Source: Clostridiales bacterium
GTDB taxonomy: Bacteria > Bacillota > Clostridia > Christensenellales > CAG-314
Direction: 5' to 3'
DNA: 64,000 nucleotides
Assembly: GCA_022508345.1 (NCBI GenBank)
Contig: JAFLVK010000002.1
Coordinates: 151,510 to 215,509, forward strand
Shown here: positions 365 through 26,786 of the stretch, in pieces
Numbering within the stretch: position 1 is the first letter of the stretch
Layout of the letters: the number at the start of each line of letters is the position of its first letter
Made by a program: the position numbers and the translations under genes
The notes under the pieces: generated by a model
The model's input: only the letters and a program-made list of their open reading frames with translations
Told to the model about the DNA's origin: nothing
Database searches by the model: none

Positions 365-390
365 TTTGCTCACCCCCTTTTTGGATATGT

Positions 391-404
391 CGAACATTTG
401 TTCT
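391..404. promoter_or_regulatory. LexA (Cheo/SOS) box
   Basis: CGAACATTTGTTCT matches the Firmicute consensus CGAAC-N4-GTTCG; it sits between the promoter and RBS of the gene starting at 364. Confidence 0.75.
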
Positions 405-412
405 ATTTGCGA

Positions 413-450
413 ATATGATATCACATTAAATATGACAACAGTTTGTCAGT
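413..450 (-). promoter_or_regulatory. Promoter with TGACA-N6-TGTCA palindrome (putative WYL box) and extended -10
   Basis: Minus strand ACTGACAAACTGTTGTCATATTTAATGTGATATCATAT; 30/38 identical to 23853-23890. Confidence 0.6.
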
Positions 451-6301: not shown

Positions 6302-7812
6302 AATGGTAACCTATCCTTACATACGTTTGCGTAGTACAGACATGCCAACAGCGCCTCACCGCACTCACGCTTTATGCTGCCGTTGAAGCGGCATTTCATG
6401 CGGTACACGTTGCCGTCCATTGCCGAACTGAAGCGACTTACGCGCGGATAATACAGCCTTTTTACAAAGATAACGTCACGCGCCCTTACGCTCAACTCGT
6501 AGTGGTAATTGATGGCTATGTCACTGTATTTGATGAGGTAGTAATCGCTGTCCAGCTTGTCAACGGGCAGCTTGGGTAGGTCACGGCGGTCTATCATTTC
6601 GTCAGTGCTTGATGCAAGTTTTGCCTTTTCTTCCAAAAACTTGTCCAGCTGCTGTGCAGTCATATTAACGGTTACATAGAAATACATGTTCGGCTTGCCA
6701 CCCTCAAGCAGGTCGCGGGCAATGCCAAACAGGTTTTGCGACAGATTAAATCCCACAATGTCTCTTTCCGTCAGCCCAAAGTTGCTTTTTATCGTGCCGA
6801 GAATTATTTTCTTGAACACATCTTCGGCGTCGTCGGCAATGGTACCGTCCTCGTTGAAACATTTTATGTCCGTCTTTTTCATAGCAAGGGATATGGGCTG
6901 GGCAAACTTGTTCTTCCAGGTGGTTTTGCGGTAACCCCTTTTTTCAACAAGCAAATAACCGTCGCTGGTGAGTATTATTCCGTTGATACCAATTTGATTA
7001 CCAAGCTGCGACTCGTAGAGAGGCGAAACCGTCGCCCCACTTTCGAACACGTCACGAACGGACACAAGGTCGTTAAGCTTGTAATCCATGCAACGGTTGG
7101 TCACAAGCATATCGAAGTACTGGCTTCGCCCTGTCTTGAGCGTCAGCTTGTTGTCCGCAAAATCAATGTCGTTTAGGCGGATTGTTACACCGTTGCTAAC
7201 ACTACTGCCCTTGTGCGCTTCCATCAGTGCCAGGGCGTTGTCACGCACGAAACGTGGCAAGTCATACTTTTCGGCACTGTCCGCTATTGCAACCTTGGTG
7301 TCGCCCAGGATATTGGCGTACACGTTTACACTGGGAAGATACAGCTTGCCGTTCATGTATGCGTCAATGTCATTTTTGCGTGTTTTGTATGCGCCTGAAT
7401 GCTCATCTTTTTCGGGGTTAGCAGGTCTGCGCCTTTTTGCAGGAACCTTGTCCAAATACATGAACGCACCGTTAGGTGTGAAAAAGTTGGCGTTTTGCTG
7501 CGGTTCCGTTTTGTCGTGCCCCGAATATTTACACGTAATCTTGTGATGATCGTCTTCGATTTTCAAAGATTCCTCCAGCTTGTGACGTGTCCTGATGGCA
7601 ATGCTGGCAACCAGTAACGTAGCAATGGCTACCACCACAATGGAGATTGTATCGCCGCTGGTAACAAAATCTTTGACAATAGCCCAAAATGCTTCAAATG
7701 AAGAAAAACCTCCAGCCAAAGCAAGGATGCCGGCAATTACCAACAAAAGCCCGATAAGCTGCACCCAAAAATTAGAAAATAACTTTATGAGAACCTGCAA
7801 AAACTTTTTCAT
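6298..7812 (-). CDS. 2-TM membrane protein with degenerate Nudix-like C-terminal domain
   Basis: Two N-terminal hydrophobic helices; IGINGIILTSDGYLLVEKRG resembles the Nudix beta-strands; no canonical Nudix box. Confidence 0.5.
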   Translation of the reverse strand: MKKFLQVLIKLFSNFWVQLIGLLLVIAGILALAGGFSSFEAFWAIVKDFVTSGDTISIVVVAIATLLVASIAIRTRHKLEESLKIEDDHHKITCKYSGHDKTEPQQNANFFTPNGAFMYLDKVPAKRRRPANPEKDEHSGAYKTRKNDIDAYMNGKLYLPSVNVYANILGDTKVAIADSAEKYDLPRFVRDNALALMEAHKGSSVSNGVTIRLNDIDFADNKLTLKTGRSQYFDMLVTNRCMDYKLNDLVSVRDVFESGATVSPLYESQLGNQIGINGIILTSDGYLLVEKRGYRKTTWKNKFAQPISLAMKKTDIKCFNEDGTIADDAEDVFKKIILGTIKSNFGLTERDIVGFNLSQNLFGIARDLLEGGKPNMYFYVTVNMTAQQLDKFLEEKAKLASSTDEMIDRRDLPKLPVDKLDSDYYLIKYSDIAINYHYELSVRARDVIFVKRLYYPRVSRFSSAMDGNVYRMKCRFNGSIKRECGEALLACLYYANVCKDRLPL

Positions 7813-21684: not shown

Positions 21685-21813
21685 AGTTGCACCACCTTGT
21701 ATAAAGTTAGTTTAATTGTACGATATAAGCGTCCAAAAGTCAAGAGCCGATATTGGCAAGCGCGAATGTTATTCGCCATAATATTATGTAGCCAAACTAC
21801 ATACAATATGTCT

Positions 21814-22836
21814 ATGAAGATAGTATTTAGCGGAGGCGGCACGGCAGGTCACGTCACGCCCAATTTAGCGCTCATCGAGCAACTTTCAACGGAAGAAATC
21901 TACTACATCGGCACCAACGGAATGGAAAAGGAACTGACCGCATCTTATGTGGAAAAGGGAAAGATAAAAGAGTATCGCGAGATATCCGCGCACAAGCTGC
22001 AACGCAAGCTTACGCTCAGCAATCTTGCGCTACCCTTCAGGCTGGTAAGGAGCGTACGCGAAGCAAAAAAGCAGCTTCGTGAAATTCGCCCCGACGTAAT
22101 TTTCAGCAAGGGCGGTTACGTTGGGCTGCCCGTAATTATTGCAGGCAAACAACTCAAGATTCCCACTGTCATTCACGAAAGCGACATGTCGCTTGGCTTG
22201 GCAAACAAGATATGTGCACACTTTGCCAACGACTTTTTGGCAGCATTTCCTTGCGACAAACGCGCAAATGTTGTGGGGCTGATAATCCGCGACGAGATAC
22301 TGCACGGCGACAAGCAAAAAGGACTGCACACAATGGGGTTTGACGGAAGCAAGCCCGTTCTGCTTGTTACAGGGGGAAGCCTGGGCGCAAAGGCGCTAAA
22401 CGACGCCATCTGCAATTGCCCACAGTTAGCCGACCGCTTTGATATTTTCGTCATCACAGGCAAAAACAAACGCATAGACTGCGAATTTGTAAAACAGACG
22501 GAATTTGTTACCAACATGAACGATTTGTACGCGGCAACGGACGTATGTCTTACGCGGGCAGGCTCCAATACGCTTGCGGAGCTGACGTTAGCGGAGGTTC
22601 CCTTTGTAACAGTACCCCTCACAAAGCAATCGCGCGGGGAACAGGTCAAGAATGCGCAATGGTTTGCAGAAAGAGGTTGCGGCTTGAAGCTATCGGAAGA
22701 AAACCTTGCCGAAAAATTGCCAAAGGCAATCAACACCGCATACGACAACCGCACTGCTATCCAAACCAAACAGCGCGCGCAAAAAGCGCTTTACGGCACA
22801 GACAAAACAGTAGCGGAAATTTTGAAATACAAATAA
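21814..22836 (+). CDS. murG: Undecaprenyl-PP-MurNAc-pentapeptide GlcNAc transferase
   Basis: GGGTAGHVTP, KGGYVG, HESD, GGSLGA and QVKNA motifs; start could be 21808 or 21814. Confidence 0.93.
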   Translation: MKIVFSGGGTAGHVTPNLALIEQLSTEEIYYIGTNGMEKELTASYVEKGKIKEYREISAHKLQRKLTLSNLALPFRLVRSVREAKKQLREIRPDVIFSKGGYVGLPVIIAGKQLKIPTVIHESDMSLGLANKICAHFANDFLAAFPCDKRANVVGLIIRDEILHGDKQKGLHTMGFDGSKPVLLVTGGSLGAKALNDAICNCPQLADRFDIFVITGKNKRIDCEFVKQTEFVTNMNDLYAATDVCLTRAGSNTLAELTLAEVPFVTVPLTKQSRGEQVKNAQWFAERGCGLKLSEENLAEKLPKAINTAYDNRTAIQTKQRAQKALYGTDKTVAEILKYK

Positions 22837-22837
22837 A

Positions 22838-23755
22838 CTACTCTTCTCTGTTTACGCTTTGTATGCTTTTGCAGCGTTCAATAACGGCAAGGCGCAAACG
22901 CTGGGGCTTTTCCACGCGAACGCCGTCGCCAAGGGAGAGAATGCGGTTGACAAGAATTTCGTCATACGGTAGGGTTGCGCGCGCAAGGTAGTTTTCCCCC
23001 ATCTTGACAACGGAGTTGATACCCAACCACTCTTCACAGGCGGAAAGCGCACTGTTTTCCACCGTGAGTATCACCTCGCACATTTCCTTGCCCTTCAGTA
23101 CGTCCGTTTTGATTACACTACTGTCCGCCTGGAACTGTCTACCGCTAAAGCGTTCACCTATATCCAGCTTGACAATGCGGGACACCTTGAAATATCTGAA
23201 GCCCTTTCTAAGCCGGCAAAAGCTGTACACGTACCAAGCGCCATCCTTCAAAATGAGGCAGTACGGCTCAATGACACGTACGCTATCGGCGCCGTCCTTG
23301 GAGTGGTACTCAATGTGGCACAGCTTTTTTTGCGCTATGCAGTCGGAAATAAGGCTGACCATGTCTCCCACTGCCGTATCGCCGCCGTCCACAATGAACT
23401 GCTCGCTTTTCAACACTGTTGCATTGCTGTGCGAACGGTACAGCCCTTTCAGCTTTTGTGTGGCTTGGCGCGTGACGTCGTCCTGTATTGAATTACTTTG
23501 CAGGCTAAACACAAGGCGCTCGTACTCCTCCTGCGTGAAGTAGGTAGCTTTTAGCTTGTAGTTTTCCACTATCCGCCAACCGCCACCGCGACCAAGGCAG
23601 CTTTCGATTGGCACACCGCCCTCCGACAGCATCGCCATGTACCTGTACACGGAGCGAACGGAAATTTCGTATTTTTGCGCAAGCTCTTCGGCGCGGACAA
23701 GATTGTCGGCAGAAAGCAACGTGGACAACATACCTACAAGAATGGGAATTTGCAT
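22838..23755 (-). CDS. YafY-family HTH-WYL-WCX transcriptional regulator
   Basis: AEELAQKYEISVRSVYR..GRGGGW HTH; RVIEPYCL..WYVYSFCRLRKGFRYFKVSRI WYL domain. Confidence 0.92.
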   Translation of the reverse strand: MQIPILVGMLSTLLSADNLVRAEELAQKYEISVRSVYRYMAMLSEGGVPIESCLGRGGGWRIVENYKLKATYFTQEEYERLVFSLQSNSIQDDVTRQATQKLKGLYRSHSNATVLKSEQFIVDGGDTAVGDMVSLISDCIAQKKLCHIEYHSKDGADSVRVIEPYCLILKDGAWYVYSFCRLRKGFRYFKVSRIVKLDIGERFSGRQFQADSSVIKTDVLKGKEMCEVILTVENSALSACEEWLGINSVVKMGENYLARATLPYDEILVNRILSLGDGVRVEKPQRLRLAVIERCKSIQSVNREE

Positions 23756-23800
23756 TTACTACACCTTCCAATATATTTTGGTAAATTTATTGTAAAACAC

Positions 23801-23893
23801 TGACATAATATTGTCAAGTTAATGCTAAAAAATATCGAAAAAAGTTATAATAACTGACATATAGTTGGCATATTTAGTGTGCTACAATATAAT
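23801..23893. promoter_or_regulatory. Two putative WYL-regulator boxes and divergent promoter
   Basis: TGACA-TAATAT-TGTCA (23801-23816); TGACA-TATAGT-TGGCA (23855-23870); TGcTACAAT/TATAAT at 23880-23893. Confidence 0.7.
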
Positions 23894-23922
23894 CACAAAA
23901 ACAAGAAAAGGAGTAAAGAACC

Positions 23923-24096
23923 GTGAAATACAACTGCGAAAAGGAATTTGATTTGAAAGAGATATATCGCAAGCTGACAAGCTCCACAGCTCCGCAAATG
24001 GTAAAAGCAAGCAATTTCTTTGCTCCCGTTACCTTTGAACAATTTCAAGAACAAATGGAGCTTGCCATGCTCAAGCGCAAGCAAACCACAAATTAA
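23923..24096 (+). CDS. 57-aa hypothetical protein divergent from the WYL gene (below the ORF-track cutoff)
   Basis: AAGGAG RBS and GTG start: MKYNCEKEFDLKEIYRKLTSSTAPQMVKASNFFAPVTFEQFQEQMELAMLKRKQTTN; followed by the hairpin ACCCCCT/AGGGGGT. Confidence 0.7.
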   Translation: MKYNCEKEFDLKEIYRKLTSSTAPQMVKASNFFAPVTFEQFQEQMELAMLKRKQTTN

Positions 24097-24194
24097 ACAT
24101 TTCTCCATTCGGTAGACAGCAGAAAACCCCCTTTACACGAGGGGGTACGCATTTTTAAACAAGGATAATATTTAAATATATAAGGAAATATTCC

Positions 24195-24222: not shown

Positions 24223-25308
24223 TTATTTTTTCTTAATTCCGTTGCCCCCATTCAGCACCCCCGATTCGAAGGTATATACACGCTGTTGAAGTTCACGGTA
24301 ATCGGCAATTGCCTGTTCCACAAGCGCTTCGCCGTATTGAGTGCGCGAGTAGCTTGCTTCCCACAGCCCGTAAGCTAACGAGCCGGGGGTTGTGTTTATT
24401 TCATTTACGTACAGCTTGCCCGTAGTTTTGTCGTACAGATAGTCCACGCGTATCACCCCACCGAAATTGAGCTTTGTGTAAATTTCCGAAGTCAACCGCT
24501 TCACTTCCTGAATGATCTTGTCCTCTACCGTTATTTTCTCCCGTTCGTACGCTTCGTTTGCTATGTATTTGTCGGCAAAGGTCAACACGTCGTGTATAGT
24601 TACGGGGCAATCAACTATGCTTGTGTGAACACCGCCTTGGGTCTTGAATGCTGCACAGTTAAGTTCGAAAAAGTCCGTCAGCGCCTCTTCACACAGCACC
24701 TTGCTGTCGTAGCGCAATGCGTGTTGTAACGCTTGCTGCAGTTCGTTCACATCGTGCGCAACTTCAACGCCAATGCTCGAGCCCAACATTGAGGGCTTGA
24801 CGATAATGGGAAAACCAATACCACCGCAATCCTTCATAAATTCCGACACGGAGTCCTTGGTCACCTCTACGCCGTATACGACAGGCATGTTGATATCCTT
24901 GAGCACCCTCTTGGTCAGCACCTTGTCCATTGCAATTGCGCTGGAGGTAATGTCCGAGCCCACAAGCGGAATACACGCCATTTGGCATAACGCAGCTATG
25001 CAGCCGTCCTCACCGCTCATGCCGTGGCAACAGTTGACGGCAACGTCGATAGCAACTTGCTCCACCGAGAACCTGCCTTTGCGGATGGCAATTTTCCCTT
25101 CGCCCAACAAAAAAGTAACTTTCTTTGTCAGCTTTTTCGTGATATGGTCGCGTGGTGTCCAGTCGTTGCCTGCAAGGTATGCGCAGTTGTTTTTGTCAAG
25201 GTAAACGCTGTAAATGTTGCCCTTGAAGTATCCCTTGGCAAGACATGCGGTAATGATGGAAATGTCATGCTCACAGCTTCTGCCACCGTAGACAATCAAA
25301 ATATTCAT
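24223..25308 (-). CDS. ddl: D-alanine--D-alanine ligase family
   Basis: YGGRSCEHDIS, HGMSGEDG, GSSIGV and NEINTTPG motifs. Confidence 0.88.
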   Translation of the reverse strand: MNILIVYGGRSCEHDISIITACLAKGYFKGNIYSVYLDKNNCAYLAGNDWTPRDHITKKLTKKVTFLLGEGKIAIRKGRFSVEQVAIDVAVNCCHGMSGEDGCIAALCQMACIPLVGSDITSSAIAMDKVLTKRVLKDINMPVVYGVEVTKDSVSEFMKDCGGIGFPIIVKPSMLGSSIGVEVAHDVNELQQALQHALRYDSKVLCEEALTDFFELNCAAFKTQGGVHTSIVDCPVTIHDVLTFADKYIANEAYEREKITVEDKIIQEVKRLTSEIYTKLNFGGVIRVDYLYDKTTGKLYVNEINTTPGSLAYGLWEASYSRTQYGEALVEQAIADYRELQQRVYTFESGVLNGGNGIKKK

Positions 25309-25319
25309 TTATTCACTCC

Positions 25320-26786
25320 TTATATGTTCACAGTATCAGGCAGGTCGTTTTGGAATAGCAGTATTCCACCGTTAACATGTTGTGTTGCAAGCGACACCGC
25401 CTGTTTGAGGTCCTTTGCGTAAATCACCGTGCACGAGGTGTGTTTCAGCCCCTCTGCTAAGCTCTTGGCGTTGCGCCCCAACACCACGGCAACACTGCAC
25501 ACACTGCCCAGCAGCTTGCCACACTGCACGTTCATTGCTTGGCGCTCTTTGCCGCACTCTACCAAGCCTTGCGTAATGACCACCTTGCAGCAGCTAAATT
25601 GCGCAAGCGTTTTGGTGCAGCTTGTTACGCCCACGATACTGCCGTTATAGCTGTCGTCCAGTATGTAACAGTTTGCGCCCTTTACAAGCTCCATGCGGTG
25701 TGGCGTTTGCTTGACGCGCGACACACATGCCAGGGTATCTTTCAGGCTTTGATTAAGCCGCAACACCGTTTGCAAGCACATTGCAAATGTGTCCCTTACG
25801 TAATCGGATATCTGGGGCAGCGTGACATCTGCTATTTCGTTTTCAATTTTTACTTCAAGGTGCGTTCCCTGCAAATCGACACTTGATACAGCAATCTGCA
25901 AGCCGTCATAGGACAGATATTTAGCGCAACTGCCCGCAGCGACATACTTTGACACAATTTCGTCCGCGCCGTTAAGCACACAAAAGCCATCGGCAGGAAT
26001 ATGCTCCACCAGCTCGCGTTTTGTCGCGACAATGATATCCAAGCTTTTGAATGTGGACAGATGCTGCGCGCACACGCCTGTAACAATTCCGTATTGAGGT
26101 TTGTACAGCTTGCACAGTTGAGCAATGTCACCGCGCCTACGCGCTCCAAATTCCAGTATTAGATATTTAGCTGTTGTCAAGTCCGTCCTGTTGATATAGG
26201 CGGCTATCCCAAGCGGAGTGTTGCAACTGCCTGTAGGCGTAATGCTGTCCATTAGCAAAGCTGACAGCATATCCTTGACGGAGGTTTTGCCGTAGCTACC
26301 CGTGATAGCAACAACTGTTACACCGCTTTTACACAGCTTGTCGCATGCAAGCTTCAGGTAATGTCGAGCAACTGCGGCATCAATCGGCAAACATATCACC
26401 CAGGACACAAGCGTAAACATGGGTATCAACCACACGAAAAAGCTACTGTCCAGCAACACGCACAGCGCAATCAGGACGACCGCTTCCACAGCCAACATTC
26501 GCCAAATGCGCTTGGTAAGCTTGAGCGGACACTTGCGCTTTACCACGCAAACAGCTACTGCCAACACAGCATACAGCGCAAGGTTTATGTAGTAGTAACA
26601 ATCCACATAAACATACAACAGTGTTGCAGCCAACTGTACCGCTACAAGCAACAGAAAGTACACGGACTTGTATATTTTGAAATATCCGCGCTGAGGACGG
26701 TAGCTTGCCGATTGCAACACCCTGAAACACTCGACGGACATCACTGTCAGGCACAGCGCAGAAATAACATCAACTGCTATTTGCAA
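25320..26786 (-). CDS. murF: MurF-like Mur ligase with N-terminal membrane domain
   Basis: ITGSYGKTSVK, NTPLG, DDSYN and LFQNDLPD motifs; hydrophobic N-terminus. Confidence 0.8.
   Translation of the reverse strand: MQIAVDVISALCLTVMSVECFRVLQSASYRPQRGYFKIYKSVYFLLLVAVQLAATLLYVYVDCYYYINLALYAVLAVAVCVVKRKCPLKLTKRIWRMLAVEAVVLIALCVLLDSSFFVWLIPMFTLVSWVICLPIDAAVARHYLKLACDKLCKSGVTVVAITGSYGKTSVKDMLSALLMDSITPTGSCNTPLGIAAYINRTDLTTAKYLILEFGARRRGDIAQLCKLYKPQYGIVTGVCAQHLSTFKSLDIIVATKRELVEHIPADGFCVLNGADEIVSKYVAAGSCAKYLSYDGLQIAVSSVDLQGTHLEVKIENEIADVTLPQISDYVRDTFAMCLQTVLRLNQSLKDTLACVSRVKQTPHRMELVKGANCYILDDSYNGSIVGVTSCTKTLAQFSCCKVVITQGLVECGKERQAMNVQCGKLLGSVCSVAVVLGRNAKSLAEGLKHTSCTVIYAKDLKQAVSLATQHVNGGILLFQNDLPDTVNI

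Follow-up and report, generated by a model that had tools for sequence, protein, structure and literature searches.

The locus analysed here raises the question of what a WYL-family regulator does with a short palindrome that recurs beside its own gene and about 23 kb away: which promoters the palindrome serves, which protein reads it, and whether its occupation turns these promoters on or off. The locus lies in a stretch of 64,000 nucleotides (nt) from a Clostridiales bacterium (contig JAFLVK010000002.1; hereafter the window), whose genome measures 1.40 Mb in 47 contigs with an estimated completeness of 95%. It consists of the gene for a 305-amino-acid (aa) regulator with winged helix-turn-helix (wHTH), WYL and WCX domains, a divergent gene for a protein of 57 aa and two copies of the palindromic box between them; the third copy precedes a gene for a regulator resembling region 4 of sigma-70. 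A first-pass annotation of the window had proposed that a Firmicute WYL activator drives a DNA-damage response at several loci through shortened promoters similar to those of PafBC. We consider it very probable, judging from conservation and position, that the boxes are the operator of the adjacent WYL protein and that the promoters of the WYL gene (P_wyl), the 57-aa gene (P_small) and the sigma-like gene (P_sigma) are its regulon. We also lean, with much less assurance, towards activation by this protein at boxes 2 and 3 in the manner of DriD or PafBC, with the bound protein replacing the -35 contact.

The sequences and positions of the three boxes (Table 1) were confirmed as first annotated, including the likeness between the 38-mers at 23853-23890 (plus strand) and 450..413 (minus strand), which are identical at 30 of 38 positions when counted by hand on the sequence. 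Six strand-matches to the pattern TGACAN6TGKCA were counted in the window; 100 shuffles averaged 0.45, and none of them reached six. Only four perfect TGACA-N6-TGTCA palindromes exist in the whole genome. A box matrix was trained on 67 sites from relatives, with the genome's own sites left out, and used to scan the whole genome. The three window sites scored 36.8 (box 3, the best), 31.4 and 27.8; the next-best score genome-wide was 18.6, and five block-shuffled genomes peaked at 12.4-17.3. Since the relatives' matrix finds exactly three sites, the regulon in this genome comprises P_wyl, P_small and P_sigma, and the multi-locus regulon first proposed is thereby reduced to three promoters at two loci. 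The same scan, which had been suggested as a search for repair and defence targets, found no box above background upstream of repair genes or of the phage-type head genes described below. The distant site, read earlier as a target of the damage or repair response, instead precedes the sigma-region-4-like regulator of a phage-derived head cluster.

A chance origin of the boxes was rejected on the window enrichment, the gap in matrix scores and the family-wide pattern counts given below. Two other perfect palindromes, both on contig C1, score below 12 with the matrix in G+C-rich surroundings and were treated as chance occurrences, and a borderline match at C1:635839 (the score of 18.6) was set aside as it is close to the shuffle maximum and does not have both half-sites. 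One further fit to the loose box pattern in the window (TGACAACGCCCTGGCA, 7228-7243) lies within a 504-aa ORF (open reading frame), falls below the matrix threshold and is probably due to chance.

P_wyl is a canonical sigma-A promoter whose -35 element and spacer fall within box 1. In all 22 genus loci with a box pair found by script, this promoter matches the -35 consensus at 6/6 positions and the -10 consensus at 5-6/6 with a spacing of 17 nt, and in 13 of the 22 it is a perfect TTGACA-17-TATAAT. The position of box 1 over the -35 of P_wyl therefore implies autorepression, and self-repression at this box is likely under models of activation and repression alike; the earlier view of box 1 as a second activating box does not fit a box placed on a perfect -35. 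A box was present in the divergent promoter region of the WYL gene in 25/25 genus loci. The distance between box 1 and box 2 is 53-55 nt in 22 of these, the other three being degenerate or N7 variants.

Box 2 is followed by the -10 element of P_small, with a TAnnnT at 12 nt (16 loci) or 11 nt (nine loci), that is, in all 25 genus loci. The best match to TTGACA at 16-18 nt covers only 1-3 of six positions. The observation in the first-pass annotation that TTG(T/G)CA stands 12 nt before an extended -10 in both copies is thus true, and it is conserved in the genus as a spacing of 11-12 nt.

At the distant locus, a box was found upstream of the sigma-like gene in 29 of the 30 genus loci fetched, the sequence available before the gene in the 30th being just 73 nt long. 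A script placed TAnnnT exactly 12 nt behind the box in 28 of the 29; at the remaining locus (L053) it picked another site, but the listing shows the same layout there; the best -35 match is 0-2 of six in 26 loci. The sigma-like gene itself is present in 45 of 46 other genomes of the genus, and its product matches Pfam Sigma70_r4_2 (E 3.5e-8) and is annotated in PHROG as a transcriptional regulator or sigma factor.

A conserved LexA box is a further component of P_sigma. In Firmicutes the LexA box (Cheo box) has the consensus CGAAC-N4-GTTCG, and a GAAC-N4-GTT(C/T) box was found after the -10 of P_sigma in 28 of the 29 genus loci, at a distance of 11 nt (17 loci), 12 nt (one), 13 nt (four), 14 nt (two), 17 nt (three) or 19 nt (one). 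The genome encodes lexA, which is preceded by AGAACAAAAGTTTT, a one-mismatch copy; CGAACATTTGTTCG precedes a gene that we take to be uvrB-like from the first residues of its translation. GAAC-N4-GTTC has 13 matches genome-wide. The link to DNA damage that was proposed at first is plausible because of this conserved LexA box at P_sigma.

The arrangement extends beyond the genus. We compared 31 upstream regions from 17 other genera, allowing the box at most one mismatch, and found a box near the WYL gene in 24 of them. TAnnnT follows at 12 nt in 19 of the 24 and at 11 nt in one more. All 19 of these promoters are without a -35 (0-2 of six) and eight are also without the TGn that marks an extended -10. 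A ribosome-binding site comes after the box promoter, and then a short ORF with a (K)YD(L)..I start. In most other genera there is only one box, which lies 20-100 nt away from the start codon of the WYL gene; its right half, read on the opposite strand, is the TTGACA of the WYL promoter, so that P_wyl and P_small overlap on one operator. Across the family, TGACAN6TGTCAN12TANNNT gives 109 matches in 63 of 82 genomes against seven for a reversed control. In four loci of other genera (L083, L084, L086 and L088) the single box stands as close as 19-20 nt to the start codon of the WYL gene, and the -10 inferred for P_wyl stops some 6 nt short of the ATG; the WYL mRNA would there be leaderless or nearly so.

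We inspected 20 sites away from the WYL locus. Five of them precede sigma-like genes in four other genera, one precedes a Cas3 gene with HD and DEAD domains (L102, genome G075) and one an Eco57I/N6 methylase gene that lies about 380 nt downstream (L098, genome G067). Another five (L109-L113), with an extended -10 at 12 nt and a LexA-like box, precede DUF6291-type mobile-element genes in the genus genomes G009, G011 and G015; four precede other or unassigned ORFs and four have no ORF by the rule used. As Cas3 and methylase genes stand behind the box, the regulon reaches defence genes in some relatives. Genome G015 was observed to carry six identical copies of a 34-mer promoter, one of them at its own sigma-like gene; the mobile elements may have copied a host damage-responsive promoter.

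The boxes are read as the operator of the WYL protein because gene and box are conserved together across the family. Orthologs of the regulator were found in 24/24 same-genus genomes drawn (65-90% identity), in 46/46 of a fuller genus set, and in 80 of 82 genomes of the family representing 18/18 genera (27-90% identity), the two genomes without one being only 72% and 76% complete. There is one gene and one match per genome, unlike the two WYL-type subunits of PafBC. The protein is a single chain in which Pfam recognises HTH_11 (residues 10-57), WYL (133-197) and WCX (227-297), all above the cut-offs.

The HTH was found to be the best conserved domain across genera: in 19 of 20 sequences it is 41-61% identical, whereas the other domains lie at 12-55%. 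The motif S-x-R-(S/T)-(V/I)-x-R-Y within it is kept throughout the genera compared. Two arginines, R34-x3-R38, are invariant in the predicted recognition helix, and the half-site of the box contains GTC. Arg37 and Arg41 of DriD and R46 and R50 of PafB are described as reading the guanines of a GTC/GAC core (PMC8635444 and the DriD papers cited below); our match to these pairs rests on position in the predicted helix, and a search of the PDB with the HTH alone aligned neither protein. The recognition helix is kept even in genera where no box was found, so that comparing helix and box presence across genera is uninformative. In the WYL domain, W174-Y175-V176 together with R183, R187 and R193 are invariant in 25 orthologs, a pattern that is at most compatible with ligand binding.

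By sequence, the closest solved relatives of the protein in the PDB are PafBC (E 1e-7), then BrxR and CapW, and phmmer did not find DriD at E <0.01. Foldseek with a predicted model, which is mediocre (predicted local distance difference test score, pLDDT, of 69), placed PafBC and DriD first (E 1e-12 to 1e-11), followed by CapW (3e-10) and BrxR (7e-9).

Proteins of this architecture include activators and repressors. According to PMC11662680, PafBC and DriD bind promoters as activators when loaded with single-stranded DNA (ssDNA), and the repressors CapW and BrxR leave DNA when so loaded. DriD of Caulobacter crescentus activates a damage response that is independent of SOS. It recognises ATACGAC-N7-GTCGTAT (PMC13004042, PMC10853764, PMC9186387), and in every one of its promoters the site is reported to overlap the place where the absent -35 would stand and to keep the same distance to the -10 (PMC13004042). 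Its regulated promoters include bapE alongside didA (PMC13004042, PMC10853764, PMC9186387), and DidA is described as a cell division inhibitor activated by DriD (PMC9186387). The HTH of PafBC contacts -23 to -28 and reads a GTC triplet in promoters that are without a -35 and have a canonical -10, and PafBC controls about 150 genes (PMC8635444). SiwR is reported to bind a palindrome between -35 and -10 (PMC10693628).

The present system resembles DriD in its single wHTH-WYL-WCX chain, the palindromic GAC...GTC site, the R-x3-R pair, the putative binding site in its own promoter, and target promoters that have no -35 and in which the site lies over the -35 position and keeps a constant distance to the -10. 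It differs in its half-sites and spacing (TGACA-N6-TGTCA), in phylum (Firmicutes instead of Alphaproteobacteria), in promoters that are often TGn-extended, and in its main target, which is the regulator of a capsid cluster and not a set of repair genes. With PafBC of mycobacteria it shares the WYL family, promoters without a -35, a proximal TGTCA at about -29 to -25 and the best match in the PDB. PafBC, however, is a heterodimer or fusion in which one HTH reads DNA at a non-palindromic -26 element, and it controls its many genes in place of the three promoters found here. The PafBC-like promoter geometry of the first-pass annotation therefore holds for the spacing of 11-12 nt, the missing -35 and the TGTCA near the PafBC contact, but because there is one 305-aa chain and a palindromic site, the homodimer DriD serves better as a model than the heterodimer PafBC. 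The interpretation in the first-pass annotation is partly supported. We read the locus as that of a Firmicute WYL regulator of the damage type, closest in design to DriD, with an unexpected target: the regulator of a family-wide phage-derived capsid cluster that would also be under LexA control.

In the mechanism we propose, a homodimer of the WYL protein would bind the 16-bp palindrome at its three copies in the genome. On box 1 the dimer would block the -35 and spacer and repress its own gene. Boxes 2 and 3 lie at about -40 to -25, at a fixed 11-12 nt before the -10, and a dimer bound there would most likely substitute for the absent -35 and recruit RNA polymerase with sigma-A, in the way that DriD and PafBC act. 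If all characterised relatives are a guide, the trigger would be loading of the WYL domain with ssDNA from DNA damage, and the outputs would be the 57-aa protein, probably cytoplasmic, and the sigma-region-4-like regulator. P_sigma in this genus would fire only with LexA cleaved and the WYL protein active; the DriD-regulated bapE is also controlled by LexA.

Four features favour activation. The distance from box to -10 is invariant though the sequence of the spacer varies, while the position of the LexA box in the same promoters shifts. Secondly, the -35 is missing: at 16-18 nt it matches 0-3 of six positions in all 67 box-bearing promoters against 6/6 for P_wyl in 22/22 loci. Thirdly, the eight promoters of other genera without TGn have no more than a -10 hexamer. 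Fourthly, P_small overlaps a consensus P_wyl in the single-box genera, and an empty operator would favour the latter. On this geometry the idea of a Firmicute WYL activator with shortened promoters gains some ground, and we infer the direction of regulation with slightly more conviction than doubt.

The strongest alternative is that the protein is a pure repressor like CapW or BrxR, the apo dimer blocking all three promoters until ssDNA releases it, with a double lock of this protein and LexA at P_sigma. We judge this possible though rather unlikely, and several observations weigh in its favour and against activation. CapW and BrxR, repressors of the CBASS (cyclic oligonucleotide-based antiphage signalling system) and BREX (bacteriophage exclusion) systems, have the same architecture and a palindrome between divergent promoters, one of which serves the regulator's own gene, as is the case here, and they are reported to sense ssDNA and DNA damage (PMC11662680). 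In relatives, the same box precedes cas3 and Eco57I-type methylase genes, which are target kinds of CapW and BrxR, and the best PADLOC match of the 305-aa protein is a CRISPR-associated WYL model (E 2e-46). Neither whole-protein similarity in the PDB nor the Foldseek ranking separated activators from repressors. The perfect consensus of P_wyl needs standing repression and suggests an operator that is occupied in unstressed cells, like that of apo CapW or BrxR and unlike that of apo DriD. Positions -40 to -25 fall within the footprint of the polymerase. A TGn precedes TAnnnT in 21/25 P_small promoters of the genus, and most P_sigma promoters, judged by eye, carry an extended -10 of the TGn or TGTGn kind. 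Extended -10 promoters can work without a -35 in Firmicutes, and those found here could be constitutive and need a repressor alone. Furthermore, LexA already gives damage control at P_sigma, where a second repressor is as logical as an activator, and the fixed spacing could partly reflect common descent within one family.

Against repression stands first the distance from box to -10, which does not change across genera whose regulators are only 35-50% identical; fixed spacing and a missing -35 are not features of repressor sites. Eight of the 19 promoters in other genera have neither -35 nor TGn, and at the low strength to be expected of them a repressor should be superfluous. In the single-box genera, where P_wyl and P_small overlap, the unbound state would therefore favour the consensus P_wyl, and derepression would favour it over P_small. 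Finally, no defence operon adjoins the WYL gene here, its neighbours looking by eye like cell-wall genes, and the divergent 57-aa ORF has no PADLOC match. Both sets of hints could be accommodated by a MerR-like protein that never leaves its site and changes from repressor to activator.

It is very unlikely that the palindrome belongs to another factor, for example to the sigma-like regulator acting on itself, with the neighbouring WYL gene an incidental companion. The sigma-like gene has a box in its own promoter, which makes positive autoregulation formally possible, but no box above background precedes the terminase or other head genes, the expected targets of such a factor. The box is moreover found in the promoter of the WYL gene itself in every genus locus and in most other genera, and its GAC/GTC core is of the kind read by the R-x3-R pair in wHTH domains of the WYL family. 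That these are ordinary promoters without special geometry, the likeness of the 38-mers being due to chance or to a duplicated promoter, can be dismissed almost entirely: the canonical TTGGCA-17-TATAAT that the first-pass annotation allowed for at its 23.9-kb copy does score 11/12 in a promoter scan of this genome, but TAnnnT at 17 nt occurs in 1/25 genus loci, the window's own alone, against 25/25 at 11-12 nt, nothing usable as a -10 stands at 17 nt in the distant copy, and the enrichment statistics speak against chance.

Characterised WYL activators comprise PafBC and SiwR in Actinobacteria, DriD in Alphaproteobacteria and DdaA in Acinetobacter; we found in the literature no Firmicute WYL activator and no link between such a protein and a phage-derived particle cluster. 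ssDNA-sensing WYL regulators are emerging as a second DNA-damage system beside LexA. The locus described here offers a compact system of three promoters in which the same operator is likely a repressor site at one and likely an activator site at two, and a natural combination of LexA and WYL operators in one promoter.

The sigma-like gene heads a phage-derived cluster of about 10 kb that lies just upstream of the window start (L001:8739-18874, contig C12). The cluster encodes a large terminase, a possible small terminase, a P22/SU10-type portal, a scaffold-sized ORF and an SU10-type major capsid protein. After the capsid gene come four more ORFs, one of them with DUF7934, and then membrane proteins and housekeeping-looking genes; from their translations we take the flanking genes to be RNase J-, DapA- and DapB-like. 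No integrase, replication, tail-tape or lysis gene was recognised in the cluster or its flanks by family matches and translations. The capsid gene is single-copy in 47/47 genomes of the genus and 81/82 of the family with 54-94% identity, and is thus better conserved than the WYL regulator across the family, and the nearest capsids among 50,697 phage records are only 27-31% identical. This single-copy conservation and the distance to phage capsids point to a vertically inherited phage-derived element and not to a recent prophage. In five genomes from four other genera, a non-WYL site and the capsid gene share a contig, the site lying 5.6-9 kb upstream. In one genome of the same genus (G049) the sigma-like gene, the box and the LexA box were observed to be intact with the capsid reduced to a 40-residue fragment on another contig, which may reflect loss of the cluster or a gap in the assembly.

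From its gene content, the head cluster could be a gene transfer agent or some other capsid element that has been domesticated. It resembles gene transfer agents and PBSX-type defective prophages as a structural cluster under a small sigma-like regulator that is inherited vertically and linked to damage; GafA/GafYZ and Xpf are sigma-like late activators of such elements. What can be recognised here, however, is no more than a head module of about 10 kb. Control by a WYL box and a LexA box together was not found in the literature on such phage-derived clusters. A fuller picture, which we offer as speculation and would sooner doubt than accept, is that of a domesticated podovirus-like head cluster maintained throughout the family, whose sigma-like regulator would be held by a LexA roadblock at the transcription start and driven by an ssDNA-sensing WYL activator in place of the -35 contact, two independent damage sensors at one promoter; the activator would also turn on a lineage-specific 57-aa effector and, through a shared or duplicated operator, shut off its own gene, and DUF6291 elements would have copied the promoter. 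The locus points in any case to a family-wide, vertically inherited capsid cluster in abundant uncultured gut bacteria, with gene transfer or defence among its possible roles.

The 57-aa gene, absent from the ORF list and first proposed as an unannotated target, proved to be real by its synteny with the WYL gene, its alignment and its codon statistics. By tblastn (E up to 1e-3) the small ORF adjoins the WYL gene in 24/25 genus loci, and in the 25th (L021) it was recovered by its motif; tblastn did not find it in five loci of other families. An alignment of 22 orthologs shows M1, E8, F9, K17, L18 and F33 to be invariant. Column entropies summed over codon positions 1, 2 and 3 are 11.5, 6.8 and 21.3 for codons 2-19 in 17 indel-free sequences (five of the 22 were dropped), and this variation at the third position indicates that the ORF is coding.

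A profile search of 1.84 billion representative proteins returned 59 relatives of the 57-aa protein, all of 42-104 aa, from which the family appears to be a narrow one of small stand-alone proteins. No match was found in Pfam, PHROG, NCBIfam or PADLOC. The protein is hydrophilic, and its predicted fold consists of three short helices (pLDDT 84.6, predicted template modelling score 0.36). By analogy with DidA, a cell division inhibitor that is also a small protein, the 57-aa protein may, as a low-confidence suggestion, be a damage-induced checkpoint or modulator.

Table 1. Positions of the regulator, boxes, promoter elements and associated genes in the window
Feature	Coordinates	Strand	Remarks
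Sigma-70-region-4-like regulator (151 aa), first 121 codons	1..364	-	cut by the window start; first gene of the phage-derived head cluster
LexA (Cheo-type) box of P_sigma	390..405	-	TAGAACAAATGTTCGA; right after the -10 of P_sigma
Extended -10 of P_sigma	415..425	-	TGTGATATCAT; TGaTATCAT at 423..415; 12 nt after box 3
Box 3	433..448	. (minus-strand reading)	TGACAAACTGTTGTCA, read 448..433; perfect palindrome in P_sigma
wHTH-WYL-WCX regulator gene (305 aa)	22838..23755	-	Pfam, PADLOC and family orthologs
P_wyl, canonical sigma-A promoter	23789..23817	-	TTGACA 23817..23812, 17 nt, TACAAT 23794..23789; 11/12 matches in promoter scan
Box 1	23801..23816	.	TGACATAATATTGTCA; perfect palindrome; read as autoregulatory operator
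Box 2	23855..23870	.	TGACATATAGTTGGCA; read as operator of P_small; spans about -40..-25
TGn-extended -10 of P_small	23880..23888	+	TGcTACAAT; spaced 12 nt from box 2; -35 absent at 16-18 nt
57-aa gene, conserved small protein of no known family	23923..24096	+	GTG start; AAAGGAG ribosome-binding site
Terminator-like hairpin and T-run	24126..24155	+	would end the small transcript

The pair formed by the regulator and the small gene was observed to lie amid ORFs that look like genes of cell-wall synthesis (21697-22836, 24223-25308 and 25320-26786), which, read by eye, are presumably MurG-, D-Ala-D-Ala ligase (Ddl)- and MurF-like respectively. Metagenome-assembled genomes of close relatives come from the gut of rabbit, goat, roe deer and human. 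Candidatus Fimimonas, the label of one relative, is placed by the NCBI taxonomy under Myxococcaceae incertae sedis; the related metagenome-assembled genomes that bear the WYL gene are labelled Clostridia, and the genome analysed here has LexA boxes and promoters of the Firmicute type.

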